Origin: a virus
Lineage: Duplodnaviria > Heunggongvirae > Uroviricota > Caudoviricetes
DNA: 4,050 bases
Direction: 5' to 3' (one strand)
Virus record (IMG/VR): IMGVR_UViG_2579778919_000005
Part shown: positions 1-4,050 of the stretch, piece after piece
How positions within the stretch are numbered: position 1 is the first letter of the stretch
Layout: the number at the start of each line of letters is the position of its first letter
Notes under the pieces: generated by a model
Told to the model about the DNA's origin: nothing
What the model saw: the letters and a program-made list of their open reading frames with translations, nothing else
Database searches by the model: none
Position numbers and translations under genes: made by a program

Positions 1-192
1 TCAGGAGCATTTCTGGTTAACGCCACCGTTAAGAATCCACCCTTCAACAGCTTCACGAAGGTATGATTTGGGGTGGGTTCTGACTGGCTTCGGAAATCCG
101 TACCGTTTGGTATAGTTCCAGATTGTCTGACGTGATGAAACACCGAGCTTGTTCATCACTTCTTTCTCAGGAATCAGGCTGGTATCGGTCAT
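1..192 (-). CDS. AlpA-family helix-turn-helix DNA-binding protein (prophage transcriptional regulator / excisionase-like), 63 aa
   Basis: Complete ORF on the minus strand: ATG at 192..190, TGA at 3..1. GGAGA Shine-Dalgarno (plus coords 199..203) sits 6 nt upstream of the ATG. The translated segment EKEVMNKLGVSSRQTIWNYTKRYGFPKPVRTHPKSYLREAVEGWI fits the AlpA/Vis-type HTH pattern recalled from memory (hydrophobic-x-x-E-V, G-x-S-R-S/T-T-I-Y, FP-K-P, trailing W). Size of 63 aa is typical for the family. Confidence 0.8.
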   Translation of the reverse strand: MTDTSLIPEKEVMNKLGVSSRQTIWNYTKRYGFPKPVRTHPKSYLREAVEGWILNGGVNQKCS

Positions 193-269
193 CTTAATTC
201 TCCAGGCAAAAAGAAACCGCCATATAGCGGCTCTATCAGATATGTACAGGCCTCATCGAGTGTGGGGCG

Positions 270-614
270 TTAGTCCTTGCGTAGCTCGCTGATTCTTCTG
301 TAAGTCTCTGGCGCTTTGTTTCCGTGTATCTTCATTTCAGACTTCAACAGAGCAACGAGGGAATCCCATTCGTTGAGGATGCCTTTGAATGTCGGAACGC
401 GCTTTGCAACCTTGTCGAATGAATCTCTGATTTCTGGAATCTGCTCAACAAGTGCAACACATCGCCGGAAGTCTGCTGCGTCATGGGGAGCGCCGAAGTG
501 ATGACCATAGATATTCTTTTTCAGTCCACATGCGATTGAGGCAAGAGTTGCGCTACTGATGCCGACATCGCCAGTTGATTGCCATTTCAAAACCTTCATA
601 GCCAAATCTGACAT
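270..614 (-). CDS. hypothetical protein, 114 aa (123 aa if the GTG at 641 is used); no recognisable family
   Basis: ORF track lists a minus-strand ORF 270..641 whose first codon is GTG. An in-frame ATG at 614..612 is preceded by GGAGA (plus coords 621..625) with 6-nt spacing, so I prefer that start. Stop is TAA at 272..270. The protein has mixed, non-repetitive composition and no predicted TM segment. It is in tandem with, and 77 bp upstream of, the AlpA-like gene, so probably co-transcribed. Function unknown; I do not recognise the sequence. Confidence 0.6.
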   Translation of the reverse strand: MSDLAMKVLKWQSTGDVGISSATLASIACGLKKNIYGHHFGAPHDAADFRRCVALVEQIPEIRDSFDKVAKRVPTFKGILNEWDSLVALLKSEMKIHGNKAPETYRRISELRKD

Positions 615-663
615 TTCTTGTCTCCATAAAACAAAACTCACCGTAGCGAGTTCAGATAAAAGA

Positions 664-685
664 AATCCCCGCGAGTGCGAGGATT
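664..685. promoter_or_regulatory. 22-bp imperfect palindrome AATCC-c-CGC-gagt-GCG-a-GGATT; candidate operator or bidirectional hairpin in the divergent intergenic region
   Basis: Pairs 664..668 with 681..685 and 670..672 with 677..679, with one mismatch (669/680). It lies between the divergently oriented minus-strand cassette (start 614) and the plus-strand gene run. On the minus strand it is followed by TTCTTTTATC, so it could also act as a terminator for leftward transcripts entering from the right. Confidence 0.3.
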
Positions 686-693
686 GTTATTCA

Positions 694-1089
694 TTGCCGA
701 TATTCACCTTTATCGCGAACACCTTTACAGGAGGACTTGGTTCGACAGCCACAAGCAATCAACTGGCTACGATTGCTCCGACTCTCGGTCAGTCGTGGTT
801 ATCAAACCAGATGAGCAATTACAACAATCTGGCAAACGTTGGGCTTGGTGCGCTGCAAGGTCAGGCAAACGCTGGGCAGACATACGCCAACAACATGAGC
901 AGCATTGCACAGCAAAGCGCAGCACTTGCCGCTGCTAATGCCAATAAACCATCAAGTCTTCAGACAGCAATTAGCGGCGGCACGTCTGGTGCGATTGCCG
1001 GTGCAGGTCTTGCCAGCCTTCTTGAAACATCAACACCGTGGGGTGCTGGCATTGGCGCTGGTATCGGATTGCTTGACTCGTTGTTTTAA
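694..1089 (+). CDS. small Gly/Ala-rich putative membrane-active virion (ejection-type) protein; 5' end uncertain, possibly a truncated remnant
   Basis: Frame-1 ORF ending in TAA at 1087..1089. The track start (ATG 559) gives a Cys-rich, non-protein-like N-terminus and overlaps the divergent minus-strand gene, so I reject it. Remaining in-frame starts are TTG 694 (GAGGA at 679..683, 10-nt spacing) or ATG 811 (no clear SD). The C-terminal part (TSGAIAGAGLASLLETSTPWGAGIGAGIGLLDSLF) is a glycine-zipper hydrophobic segment. Composition matches the next two genes. Confidence 0.45.
   Translation: MPIFTFIANTFTGGLGSTATSNQLATIAPTLGQSWLSNQMSNYNNLANVGLGALQGQANAGQTYANNMSSIAQQSAALAAANANKPSSLQTAISGGTSGAIAGAGLASLLETSTPWGAGIGAGIGLLDSLF
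705..727 (+). repeat. direct repeat CACCTTTA (705..712 and 720..727), with a flanking TATTCA duplication (688..693 and 701..706)
   Basis: Exact 8-bp direct repeat 15 bp apart, immediately upstream of GGAGGA (730..735), inside the uncertain 5' region of ORF1. Could be tandem regulator-binding sites or coincidence. Confidence 0.25.
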
Positions 1090-1098
1090 GGGGTAATC

Positions 1099-1812
1099 AT
1101 GGCTACTTGGCAAGGAACAAACGGCGGATTGTTGGCTGGTATCGGTGGCGTCAACTCAAACGCTCCTAACGTAAATGACATCGGCAATACGCTTCAGCTT
1201 ATCAGGCAGAACAATGATATTGAGCGTTCAGGCGCTAACAATGTTGGGCTGACTGTTTTGCAAGGTCTTTCTGGTATTGCGGGTGTTTTTAAGCAGGAAA
1301 AGCAGGCTCAGCGGCAGAAAGAATTTCAGCGGGCGTACGCTAATGCTTATGCGTCTGGTGATCGCGGTGCTTTGCGTCAGTTGGCTACTCAATATCCAGA
1401 CCAGATTGAATCTGTTCGTAAAGGAATGGGATTCATTGATGAAGACCAGCGCAATTCTATCGGCACCTTAGCGGCTGGCGCACGCCTTGCATCATCATCT
1501 CCAGAAGCAATGCAATCATGGCTGCAAAACAACGCCAAGGAACTGACTCGCGTCGGTGTTGACCCTAATAACGTTGCTCAGATGTATCAGCAGAATCCTT
1601 CAGGATTTGGTGAGTTTGTTGATCACCTTGGGATGGCTGCTCTTGGTCCGATTGATTACTTCAATGTTCAGGACAAGATGGCTGGTCGTGAGATTGACCG
1701 AGGCAGACTGGCAGAGACAATCCGCAGCAATCAGGCTGGTGAAGCACTAACAGCGCGTGGTCAGGACATCCAGATATCGGAAAGATTAGAAATCAGCTTG
1801 AAAGCAAGTTGA
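1099..1812 (+). CDS. putative internal virion / DNA-ejection protein, 237 aa (functional analogue of the P22 gp7/gp20/gp16 class)
   Basis: ATG at 1099 preceded by AGGGG (1090..1093) with 5-nt spacing; stop TGA at 1810..1812. The N-terminus has a glycine-rich hydrophobic stretch (GGLLAGIGGV) followed by a Q/N/A-rich, probably helical, low-complexity sequence. It lies in a co-oriented run of genes directly upstream of a P22-type tailspike gene, the position ejection-protein genes occupy in P22-like phages. The functional call rests on synteny and composition, not recognised sequence identity. Confidence 0.7.
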   Translation: MATWQGTNGGLLAGIGGVNSNAPNVNDIGNTLQLIRQNNDIERSGANNVGLTVLQGLSGIAGVFKQEKQAQRQKEFQRAYANAYASGDRGALRQLATQYPDQIESVRKGMGFIDEDQRNSIGTLAAGARLASSSPEAMQSWLQNNAKELTRVGVDPNNVAQMYQQNPSGFGEFVDHLGMAALGPIDYFNVQDKMAGREIDRGRLAETIRSNQAGEALTARGQDIQISERLEISLKAS

Positions 1813-1814
1813 GC

Positions 1815-1840
1815 ACTGTTAAAAAACAGTTTGATTATCA
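1815..1840 (+). terminator. weak hairpin (ACTGTT-AAAA-AACAGT) followed by TTGATTATCA; candidate attenuator between ORF2 and ORF3
   Basis: 6-bp stem with only 2 G:C pairs and a 4-nt loop, starting 3 nt after the ORF2 stop, followed by a U-rich stretch. If real, it would only partially terminate. Confidence 0.2.
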
Positions 1841-1912
1841 GGAGCCGGTGCAGAATATGCCAGGGCAACAATCTACTACTGGCAGTAACTTTTCTTCACT
1901 ATGGGGTGATTA

Positions 1913-3175
1913 ATGGCTAAAGCATGGAAAGATGTTATCAGATTTGCAGAGCGTGAAGGAGTTCCTCTGCACACCACAGACCTGTTACAACCAACTTCCT
2001 GCGTCGGAAAAATGGCGCAGACTACAGCAGAAAATATCCCTCTGGCTGGCACAAGCGGAATGAGAGCAACGCAACAGGAAGCGAGAAGCCAGTTGGTGCA
2101 GAGATTTGCTGATAAATTCGGTGAGTATGATCCAGCGGTTGTTATTGACAGCCTTAAAGCGAAAACATCAGGAATTCGTCGTGCCGCCGGTAATCGACTG
2201 GAGCAGGTTCAGAATGCTATGGCTGGAGTAAACATTCAGCCTGCGCGAGCAATTCAGCAGATTGATACAGAAATATCTAACCTGCAGAAGCTTGGTAAGG
2301 TTGCTGATAACGAGACTATTTCAAAACTTCAGTCATATCGTGATGAGCTTGTTCGCAATGCTGGTCCTGATGGTCCGGTAAATCTGGATTTGAAGCAATT
2401 AAGCGATCTGCGCAGCCAGTTCAGAATGGACGTGAAGGGTGAGCGACCAGTGTTACCAAACCGTTCCGATGCTGCCATTCAGCGCGTTTACAAGGCAATG
2501 ACCGACGATATCAATGGTGCCATTGGTCAGAATCTTGGCAACGATACTCTCCGTAAATATCAGCAGGCCAATGCCGTCTACGCTGACGAAGCGGCGAAAC
2601 TAAAGAATACCAGACTGAAGAATGTTCTCATGAAAGGCGACCTGACGCCGGAAGTTGTCAACAACATGCTATTCAGCAAGAACAAATCGGAAATTAAGAC
2701 GCTGTATAACTCAGTTGGTCGTGTTGGCCGGGCGCAAATGCGCAATGGCATCATTGGAAAGGCGATGGAGAAATCTGGCGGATCCCCAGCCCAGTTCCTT
2801 CGACAGCTTAACATCCTGCAAAACCATACTGGCATCACATTTAAAGGTCAGGATGCTGCTTATCTGAAAGGATTGAAAAACTACCTGCAATCCACGCAGC
2901 AGGCTGCAAAAGCGGCAGTAACAACACCCACAGGTCAGCAAACCATCCCGTTCATTATCGGGTATGGGACTGCAATGAACCCGGCGACAACTGGCGCAGC
3001 AGTAAGCTACGGCCTTCTTGCTCGCGCCTATGAGAGTAAGCCATTCAGAAATGCAATGCTACGAATGGCAAATACCCCACGCGGATCAACAGCGTTTGAG
3101 AAAGCCATGCAGCAGGCACAAAAGGCCATTAACTCCCTGACTCAGGGTGCTAAGTCTGATGCGTTGTCAGAATAG
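1913..3175 (+). CDS. putative internal virion / DNA-ejection protein, 420 aa
   Basis: ATG at 1913 preceded by GGGG (1903..1906) with 6-nt spacing; stop TAG at 3173..3175. Long, uninterrupted ORF; the competing ORFs on either strand are short and internal. The protein is A/Q/K-rich and probably helical, with a hydrophobic Gly-rich segment near the C-terminus (IPFIIGYGTAMNPATTGAAVSYGLLA). It is the last gene before the tailspike. The functional call is by position and composition only. Confidence 0.75.
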   Translation: MAKAWKDVIRFAEREGVPLHTTDLLQPTSCVGKMAQTTAENIPLAGTSGMRATQQEARSQLVQRFADKFGEYDPAVVIDSLKAKTSGIRRAAGNRLEQVQNAMAGVNIQPARAIQQIDTEISNLQKLGKVADNETISKLQSYRDELVRNAGPDGPVNLDLKQLSDLRSQFRMDVKGERPVLPNRSDAAIQRVYKAMTDDINGAIGQNLGNDTLRKYQQANAVYADEAAKLKNTRLKNVLMKGDLTPEVVNNMLFSKNKSEIKTLYNSVGRVGRAQMRNGIIGKAMEKSGGSPAQFLRQLNILQNHTGITFKGQDAAYLKGLKNYLQSTQQAAKAAVTTPTGQQTIPFIIGYGTAMNPATTGAAVSYGLLARAYESKPFRNAMLRMANTPRGSTAFEKAMQQAQKAINSLTQGAKSDALSE

Positions 3176-3284
3176 CTTCGCAAACACCAGGAATATGCAA
3201 AAACCAAATATGTAGAGCGCAATATTCAATAGATCTCTTTGCATAGACTCATCTCATAATTAACAAATCATAACTGACATTAGT

Positions 3285-3320
3285 GCAATGCTGGGCAAGT
3301 TGCATCTTGTTCGGCATTGC
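3285..3320 (+). promoter_or_regulatory. 15-bp stem / 6-nt loop RNA hairpin 20 nt upstream of the tailspike start codon
   Basis: Left arm 3285..3299 (GCAATGCTGGGCAAG) pairs with right arm 3306..3320 (CTTGTTCGGCATTGC): 12 Watson-Crick pairs plus 3 G:U pairs, loop TTGCAT. No U-tract follows, so it is not a canonical intrinsic terminator; more likely an RNA stability, processing or translational-control element. Confidence 0.4.
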
Positions 3321-3339
3321 TACGTCCGGAGCAAATTAA

Positions 3340-4050
3340 ATGACAGACATTACAGCCAATGTTGTAATTGGGATGCCTTCGCAACTCTTCACTATGGCGC
3401 GTTCTTTTAAAGCCGTAGCCAATGGCAAAATTTATATCGGTAAAATTGACACTGACCCGGTAAATACTGAAAACCAGATTCCGGTTTATGTAGAGAACGA
3501 AGACGGCTCTCACGTTTCTGTTTCTCAACCAATCATCATTAACGCTGCTGGATATCCGGTATATAACGGGCAGATTGCCAAATTCGTAACTGTGCAAGGC
3601 CATTCTATGGCTGTATATGATGCGTATGGCACGCAGCAGTTCTATTTCCCTAATGTGCTGAAGTATGACCCTGATCAATTTCAGGAAAGATTGCTATCTG
3701 AAAATGGGCCATTATTAGTTGATGATTCAGTTGTTCGTGTAAAACAACCCCTCTCTATGGCAATCGAGAGAGCACAGCACGATAAAAATGCAGATTTTGT
3801 GAGCGCGAAAGACTTTGGGTTTAAAGGTGATGGCACGAATGATGATGCTGCGGTGCTCAAACTTAAAGATTACGTTAACACAAGACCTAAATATTCTCCA
3901 CCAGTATCCGTGTACTTTCCAGATGGAAATTATCTTATTAGCGAGTCATTGAATTTAATTAGACCTGTTACTTTATACTCTTTTAAAGGAGCAACAATAA
4001 ACTATACTGGAACTGACGCTGCAGTTAAGTGTGGAGATCCAACTGACGAA
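3340..4050 (+). CDS. tailspike protein, N-terminal 237 codons (P22 gp9-type head-binding domain plus the start of a beta-helix receptor-binding domain); 3' end lies beyond the window
   Basis: ATG at 3340 with GGAG (3328..3331) 8 nt upstream; the frame stays open to the last base of the window. Residues 1..113 (MTDITANVV...[21 protein letters not shown]...[14 protein letters not shown]...QPIIINAAG...[13 protein letters not shown]...NVLKYDPDQ) match, at most positions, the conserved head-binding domain of P22/Sf6/HK620-type tailspikes as I recall it. After YDPDQ the sequence diverges and contains [17 protein letters not shown] (nt 3808..3858), the motif typical of the start of pectate-lyase-like right-handed beta-helix depolymerases. 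Not in the supplied ORF track because it has no stop inside the window. Confidence 0.9.

Follow-up and report, generated by a model that had tools for sequence, protein, structure and literature searches.

The window, a 4,050-nt stretch of viral DNA (IMG/VR record IMGVR_UViG_2579778919_000005), can with high confidence be taken as the core of a defective P22-like prophage (Sf6-type, Lederbergvirus) of about 9 kb that sits in sbcB of an E. coli strain. Its odd layout is very probably the scar of one internal deletion of about 25-27 kb in a P22-like prophage, a case of ordinary decay rather than a new mobile element. Four things were observed directly: where the breaks lie, what each flank is, the presence of an integrase and attL at the left, and the existence of a complete prophage, also at sbcB, with the same design. 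The features of the window are as follows.

1-20, plus strand: 3′ end of a tyrosine integrase gene (2851/mEp234 type, 392 aa), with its TAA stop at 18-20; called at 6930-8108 of the source contig L009
1-192, minus strand: 63-aa AlpA-like winged-HTH protein, presumed excisionase (recombination directionality factor), phrog_66
214-233, minus strand: terminator-like hairpin with a T-run, between ORF114 and xis (terminator scan)
270-614, minus strand: ORF114, an early-left accessory gene of lambdoid phages, from ATG 614 (the ORF listing extends it to GTG 641)
634-653 and 664-685, minus strand: two terminator-like hairpins upstream of ORF114 (terminator scan)
687-728, minus strand: stub of an ASCH-domain gene, the stop codon and last 13 codons (alignment)
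726-731, no strand: deletion junction 1, the early-left arm joined to gp7 codon 111 (TAC.GG microhomology, three-way alignment)
727-1089, plus strand: 5′-truncated ejection gene (P22 gp7/Sf6 gene 11), codons 111-230 and stop, a pseudogene (Pfam, BLASTN)
1099-1812, plus strand: gp20 homologue (Sf6 gene 12), frameshifted, codons 1-226 followed by 11 out-of-frame codons (237-aa ORF; Pfam Inj_translocase)
1776-1913, plus strand: displaced C-terminal 45 codons of gp20 in the native frame, severed from the N-terminal part (translation)
1913-3175, plus strand: gp16 homologue (Sf6 gene 13), 420 aa left (precomputed Pfam family Phage_P22_gp16)
3340-4050 and continuing beyond the window, plus strand: 5′ part of the tailspike gene, which encodes a conserved head-binding domain and then enters a pectate-lyase-like receptor domain (L009 11428-13371)

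An earlier, sequence-only reading described the layout accurately, with two minus-strand genes (1-192 and 270-614) ahead of the plus-strand virion genes. It judged the first plus-strand frame, ORF1, to be 5′-truncated and suspected a recombination junction in a prophage remnant, and both judgments hold. The window was compared by megablast with 50,697 phage records, and 5,426 complete E. coli genomes were searched; none of these reaches 80% coverage of the window or extends across the junction. From position 1 to 690-728 the window matches the int-proximal arm of lambdoid phages (2851, 1717, mEp234, Stx phages, HK022, 434) at 93-97%. From 726/727 to about 3680 it matches Sf6 genes 11-14, the gp7, gp20, gp16 and tailspike homologues, at about 95%, and about 20 other P22-like phages are matched too. 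A BLASTN search for the breakpoint, as had been proposed, finds that identity to P22-like phages begins at 726/727, equivalent to nt 330 of Sf6 gene 11 (693 nt), with lambdoid early-left DNA to the left.

In Sf6 gene 11, codon 111 begins at the base equivalent to window position 727, and 727-1086 matches positions 111-230 of the 230-position Pfam P22_gp7 profile (E = 8e-60). Thus, ORF1 is a 5′-truncated pseudogene; the gp7 remnant is 94.9% identical to Sf6 from 726 on. From 559 to 726, ORF1 results from reading through ORF114, the tL4 terminator and the gene stub in antisense, and the start chosen by gene callers for this first plus-strand ORF is TTG 694. In a three-way alignment of the junction, the lambdoid sequence reads ...ACCTTTACCGG, Sf6 reads ...GGCTACGGGAGG, and the window reads ...ACCTTTACAGGAGG, which places the crossover within TAC.GG at 726-731. 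A TAC.GG crossover is typical of illegitimate recombination. Reference genomes, at one genome per species, hold no match to a 26-nt junction pattern or to a 23-nt motif at its left. A search for fusion ORFs at other junctions, with the 559-729 antisense peptide against 5.8 billion proteins, returned short spurious ORFs only.

The window is 100% identical to contigs L010 and L011 and 99.98% identical to L009 (GCA_003145915.1), and window position 1 is L009 position 8089. The same 4050 bases recur in independent NCBI, ENA and Logan assemblies, and an exact-protein look-up in these three sources places the 420-aa protein on 17 contigs. Since independent assemblies carry the identical junction, it is a real junction and not an assembly artefact. 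The left part of L009 contains, in order, yeeZ, yeeY, plaP, tsuAB, sbcB, the attL core, int, xis and ORF114. The right part contains 'gp7, gp20 (frameshifted), gp16 (internally deleted), the tailspike gene, an acyltransferase gene, a 2851-type attP arm and an IS at the contig end. The host flank of L009 is 98.6-99.1% identical to E. coli.

The sequence-only reading anticipated an integrase or att site just to the left, and both are there. The int stop codon lies inside the window at 18-20, and the attL core, CGTAATCGTGAAA, lies within sbcB at L009 6703-6715, about 1.4 kb to the left of that stop. It is a 2851-type att core, found in sbcB together with its cognate integrase, as expected of integration at a phage att site; the integrase carries Arm-DNA-bind_3 and Phage_integrase domains. 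sbcB is the insertion site of 2851-type Stx2c phages (PMC3519850). The attP arm downstream of the acyltransferase gene, at the right end of the remnant, is the matching one. An attR is present in a second remnant at sbcB, that of PSJ-16. The attR of the window's own strain is absent from contig L009 because the IS breaks the assembly there.

This flank also bears on whether the minus-strand pair is a moron or regulatory cassette in the late operon of a complete phage, or whether the join is an assembly chimera. We regard either as barely credible, nothing speaking for them beyond the first impression given by the window alone. A moron would have late virion genes on both sides, whereas int, attL and sbcB make up the left flank; when it was inspected, as the sequence-only reading had advised, no ordinary tail genes were found there. 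A chimera is countered by the recurrence of the junction across NCBI, ENA and Logan.

The minus-strand pair itself is ordinary. The 63-aa HTH protein matches phrog_66, "excisionase and transcriptional regulator" (E = 2e-8), and NCBI sources label it an AlpA family regulator. Against Pfam PF05930 (Phage_AlpA) it scores 16.8 bits, below the gathering cut-off of 21, and falls outside that family by this threshold. The mEp234 record points to the likeness of this HTH protein to the phi24B excisionase. int and xis are convergent and overlap by 20 bp, a layout also annotated in PSJ-16, mEp234 and LD39-1. The protein combines membership of an excisionase/regulator family with a gene that overlaps the 3′ end of int. 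On the basis of position and annotation, the AlpA-like gene is presumed to be the prophage's own putative excisionase, part of a 2851/mEp234-type integration module. We infer that the protein acts as an excisionase and not as a regulator of the adjoining virion genes.

The 114-aa gene is ORF114 of 434 and gp32 of HK022, and belongs to phrog_1229 (unknown function; E = 8e-52). Its DNA is 92.8-97.4% identical to that of 434, HK022, mEp234 and Stx phages. An AlphaFold model of the protein has an all-alpha fold (mean pLDDT 93.6); a search of the PDB with this model gave no match, and its matches in BFVD are to uncharacterised phage proteins only. The hairpin at 664-685 is the counterpart of phage 434 tL4; t-L4 is annotated at 2292-2322 of the 434 record (L003), within a stretch that aligns to window 612-711. 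The hairpin at 214-233 is analogous in position to t'I of phage 434, but its sequence is not homologous. The window aligns up to 731 with HB37, HK022, vB_EcoP-720R6 and FDAARGOS_1248, and the end of their ASCH coding sequence corresponds to window 687. The ASCH gene adjoins ORF114 in HB37, HK022 and vB_EcoP-720R6. In the last of these, a Lederbergvirus, ORF114 and ASCH occupy the normal early-left position.

The order int-xis-ORF114 is common to mEp234, 2851 and 1717, and ORF114 is also found in 434 and HK022. Likeness to the arms of 2851, 1717 and mEp234, and to the ORF114/tL4 region of 434 and HK022, amounts to 93-97% over 1-690/728; int and xis converge, and next to them stand ORF114 and tL4. 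Those arms continue with ORF55, ASCH, ea22 and erf/exo, whereas the window stops 13 codons inside ASCH; from xis to the junction it holds only ORF114, the terminators and the 42-nt gene stub. Judged by this collinearity, the minus-strand pair is no inserted cassette but what normally stands at the distal end of the leftward early operon in lambdoid and P22-like phages. The pair stands against rightward late genes because all that lay between them was lost.

The sequence-only reading had offered a different source for the pair, an AlpA-regulated integrative or satellite-type module that either invaded a prophage remnant or captured ejection and tailspike genes. Neither version finds support, and we consider a PICI-like satellite or island of this kind highly improbable. 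The element is small, about 9 kb, and has an AlpA-like HTH gene beside an integrase gene, and in these respects it does resemble the Gram-negative PICIs with AlpA regulators, which are likewise small and integrated. PICIs are characterised by replication modules and by packaging or capsid-redirection modules. The whole element here lacks genes for a primase or other replication functions, packaging, capsid redirection or interference, so that every other PICI module is absent, and 1-731 is collinear, to the last base, with the ordinary early-left arms of lambdoid phages. The pair is the prophage's own early-left end, and no invading module is needed. As for capture, the ejection genes are broken and make no functional cargo, and the same int and xis occur in a complete P22-like prophage, that of E. 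coli LD39-1.

The LD39-1 prophage (NZ_CP047658.1) is apparently complete, about 37.7 kb long, and lies between sbcB and dacD. It shares the att site, the integrase (98.5% identity) and the 63-aa HTH protein, with int and xis at its left end, and has Sf6-type ejection genes (95.3-99.4%) in the same orientation. Codon 111 of its gp7 homologue is located 26.5 kb further downstream, with no change of strand. Since the same int and xis are there followed, 26.5 kb on, by co-oriented ejection genes, a single deletion explains the layout of the window. LD39-1 is thus an intact counterpart with the same ends, though not the exact parent. It is intact where the window is broken, and it has Eag/DUF551 genes by xis where ORF114/ASCH would be, gtrABC in place of an acyltransferase gene, and an HNH gene before the tailspike gene. 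No complete prophage or phage was found in which these ORF114/ASCH alleles, these ejection genes and this tailspike occur together.

The missing exact parent gives some room to a tandem arrangement at sbcB, in which a lambdoid siphovirus of mEp234/2851 type and a P22-like prophage lay side by side, and a deletion across them, or recombination, left one end of each. The int-xis-ORF114 module is indeed seen mostly in siphoviral lambdoids and Stx phages. We nevertheless think this origin unlikely. A P22-like prophage with this int and xis does exist at sbcB, in LD39-1, and ORF114/ASCH do occur in a Lederbergvirus, vB_EcoP-720R6. The right end carries a 2851-type attP arm that matches the left, and PSJ-16 has attR. 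Tandem lysogeny followed by deletion is also less parsimonious than one deletion.

A single deletion in one P22-like prophage would start from the following ancestral order. On the left would stand attL, int, xis (AlpA-like), ORF114, ASCH and other early-left genes, immunity and replication; on the right would follow lysis, the head genes, gp14, gp7, gp20, gp16, the tailspike gene, the O-antigen acyltransferase gene and attR. One illegitimate, microhomology-mediated deletion of about 25-27 kb would then have joined the last 13 ASCH codons to gp7 codon 111 and brought the leftward xis/ORF114 pair against the rightward ejection genes. Two later microhomology deletions would have frameshifted gp20 and removed 245 codons of gp16.

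Relative to both Sf6 and LD39-1, 481 bp are missing at 1775/1776, with a TA microhomology, and gp20 is frameshifted after codon 226. The gp20 remnant matches positions 1-217 of the 218 positions of Pfam Inj_translocase, and the translation of 1776-1913 matches the C-terminus of Sf6 gp12, IGKIRNQLESKL...SLWGD*. In gp16, an in-frame loss of 735 bp at 1936-1939 with a TATC microhomology, again relative to Sf6 and LD39-1, removes codons 10-254 of 665; most of the other members listed for its 90% cluster have 665 aa. Microhomology of 2-6 bp is present at all three deletion junctions.

The homologues of gp7, gp20 and gp16, collinear with a tailspike that bears a P22-type head-binding domain, mark the element as P22-like. 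Its defective state is plain from the gene list of L009, in which terminase, portal, coat, lysis, replication and immunity genes are absent. Five promoter-like sites were found, against 6.0 expected from shuffled sequence, i.e., no excess, and comparison with Sf6 places the native late promoter and Q in the deleted region. On both grounds, the ejection-gene fragments are probably silent or only incidentally transcribed. They are likely non-functional, having been stripped of their native late promoter along with Q.

The genes at the right are in better condition. The tailspike is of full length, 647 aa, with Pfam Head_binding positions 1-113 matched (E = 2e-64) and a Pect-lyase_RHGA_epim domain; its DNA homology to Sf6 stops at about 3680. 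Downstream of it, on the minus strand, lies a full-length gene for a 666-aa AT3-SGNH acyltransferase (O-antigen modification). This divergent, intact acyltransferase gene is probably the part most likely kept by selection, and the intact tailspike gene may also have been kept in this way.

Sf6, a Shigella phage of the genus Lederbergvirus, is the closest model for the right-hand part. DNA identity is about 95% over 726-3680, with the same gene order and orientation; as in Sf6, gp16 and the tailspike gene are not separated by an immI region, and an O-antigen acyltransferase gene lies downstream on the opposite strand. The window differs from Sf6 in having lost gene 11 codons 1-110 together with every virion gene upstream of them, 481 bp of gene 12 and 735 bp of gene 13, and in having a different tailspike receptor domain. 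The integration modules also differ, 2851-type at sbcB here and IntS/TorI at argW in Sf6. A comparable P22-like remnant has been described in E. coli O104:H4, where most genes were lost and an O-antigen-specific tailspike and adjacent acetylase were kept (Scholl et al. 2012, PMC3303846). That remnant differs from the present one in strain, tailspike and deletion.

The element is a textbook cryptic prophage made by internal deletion. In the related remnant PSJ-16, gene truncation is already recognised by annotation pipelines; PGAP labels the corresponding fragment (there from gp20) "missing N-terminus". The value of the case is modest. It gives the base-precise anatomy of a P22-like prophage that was grounded yet kept an intact tailspike and O-antigen acyltransferase, a pair of use in serotype conversion and in the engineering of O-antigen-specific pyocins.

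Other remnants share the left breakpoint. In the PSJ-16 remnant at sbcB, ...CACCTTTA is followed by GCGG and joined to about codon 123 of gp20. In a remnant at argW on a metagenome contig (L066), whose integration module differs from that of the window, ...CACCTTTA is followed by TGCC and joined to the C-terminal part of a Sf101-type gp16. The left breaks of the window, PSJ-16 and L066 all fall within window-equivalent 727-731, i.e., 5 bp, at two att sites, and the join partners differ: gp7 codon 111 in the window, gp20 in PSJ-16 and gp16 in L066. The window and PSJ-16 are 4-5% different throughout, a distance equal to that between either of them and unrelated phages, and their tailspike receptor domains and acyltransferases differ. 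A further idea, that such junctions are always in frame with ATG 559, was dropped, as it is true of the window and L066 but not of PSJ-16.

These junction types are rare; among the 5,426 complete genomes, that of the window occurs in none, that of PSJ-16 in 1 and that of L066 in 3. The scan that found L066 detects only junctions immediately after the motif, and other remnants have different left ends. One of FDAARGOS_1248 at argW joins ASCH to 'gp14; one of strain 81, also at argW, joins c2 to 'gp16 and carries the same tailspike-acyltransferase pair at 99.6% identity. Scans of IMG/VR for junction variants returned only a natural mosaic variant, L093. Inspection of the breakpoint by eye revealed neither a Chi site nor the end of an IS, and nothing that convincingly resembled an att core.

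That unrelated remnants break at the same point on the left suggests a deletion that was not purely random. We tentatively propose, while holding it to be doubtful, that the linker of about 55 nt, which comprises the last codons of alternative early-left genes and lies 42 nt from the tL4 hairpins, is a hotspot at which lambdoid and P22-like prophages undergo illegitimate recombination. Each deletion would have one fixed end there and one variable end, and microhomology would join them. If so, grounded remnants should arise repeatedly, with xis-ORF114 at one side and, at the opposite one, ejection fragments together with genes for the tailspike and for O-antigen modification. A recurrent breakpoint by a module linker, if real, would bear on the origin of lambdoid mosaic joints and of defective prophages.

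The segment 687-741 is a conserved linker that three or more alternative upstream genes share, and a natural mosaic joint falls at about 741. This joint lies about 10 nt from the shared breakpoint, a proximity that was counted for the hotspot.

The left deletion breakpoint of the window is common to three P22-like remnants that are otherwise unrelated, with a spread of no more than 5 bp. It lies at the end of the ASCH gene, a neighbor of ORF114 in HB37, HK022 and vB_EcoP-720R6, as follows.

687-741: conserved linker of about 55 nt, at the ASCH 3′ end
727-731: left breakpoint, within the final 13 codons of ASCH; at 15722-15729 in the PSJ-16 remnant (L001) and at 1090 in a metagenome contig (L066)

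The right breakpoints are unlike, falling in gp7, gp20 and gp16, and the remnants occupy two insertion sites, sbcB (two remnants) and argW (one). The common left breakpoint may mark a hotspot of illegitimate recombination. In lambdoid phages, three or more different upstream genes share the linker; an alternative gene is present in about 15 of 73 metagenome contigs, as well as in L029 and the IMG/VR natural mosaic variant L093. A natural mosaic joint is located at about bp 741.

Chimeric ORFs in which part of ORF114 (270-614, minus strand) is fused to Erf, Kil, Ea22 or dATP/dGTP pyrophosphohydrolase are numerous in the protein database. Therefore, prophage deletions with an end inside ORF114 seem to be common. 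The ORF114 product is predicted, with very high confidence (mean pLDDT 93.6), to be a compact, all-α protein, and no solved structural neighbor was found for the model. ORF114 is shared with λ, 434 and HK022, in which int and xis are co-oriented, whereas in the window the integrase gene (3′ end at 1-20) and the AlpA-like xis (1-192) are convergent, their 3′ ends overlapping by 20 bp.

Comparison with Sf6 and with the complete prophage of E. coli LD39-1 reveals two more microhomology deletions in the ejection protein genes:

1775-1776: gp20 deletion; 481 bp gone, gp20 frameshifted
1776-1913: native gp20 C-terminus, still present but out of frame
1936-1939: gp16 deletion; 735 bp gone in frame, codons 10-254

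The gp16-tailspike interval (3176-3339) resembles that of Sf6 in having no immI region (mnt/arc/ant); several close relatives differ, carrying Arc/Mnt or an HNH gene there. The segments further right are as follows.

L009 (source contig) 11428-15432: tailspike and AT3-SGNH acyltransferase pair; counterpart at L019 (E. coli strain 81) 41867-45874
L009 15601-16056: IS3-family element (HTH_Tnp_1), just past the attP-proximal arm and downstream of the acyltransferase

Two complete E. coli genomes contain this pair with 99.6-99.8% identity. In strain 81, the one inspected, the pair belongs to another remnant, which lies at argW and has IntS; this points to exchange of a tailspike-acyltransferase module among P22-like phages of differing integration systems. 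The attR of the source strain is not seen because the contig ends at the IS3-family element. In the PSJ-16 remnant, the prophage right arm carries a frameshifted S24-peptidase gene (L001 23017-23407) between the acyltransferase and attR.
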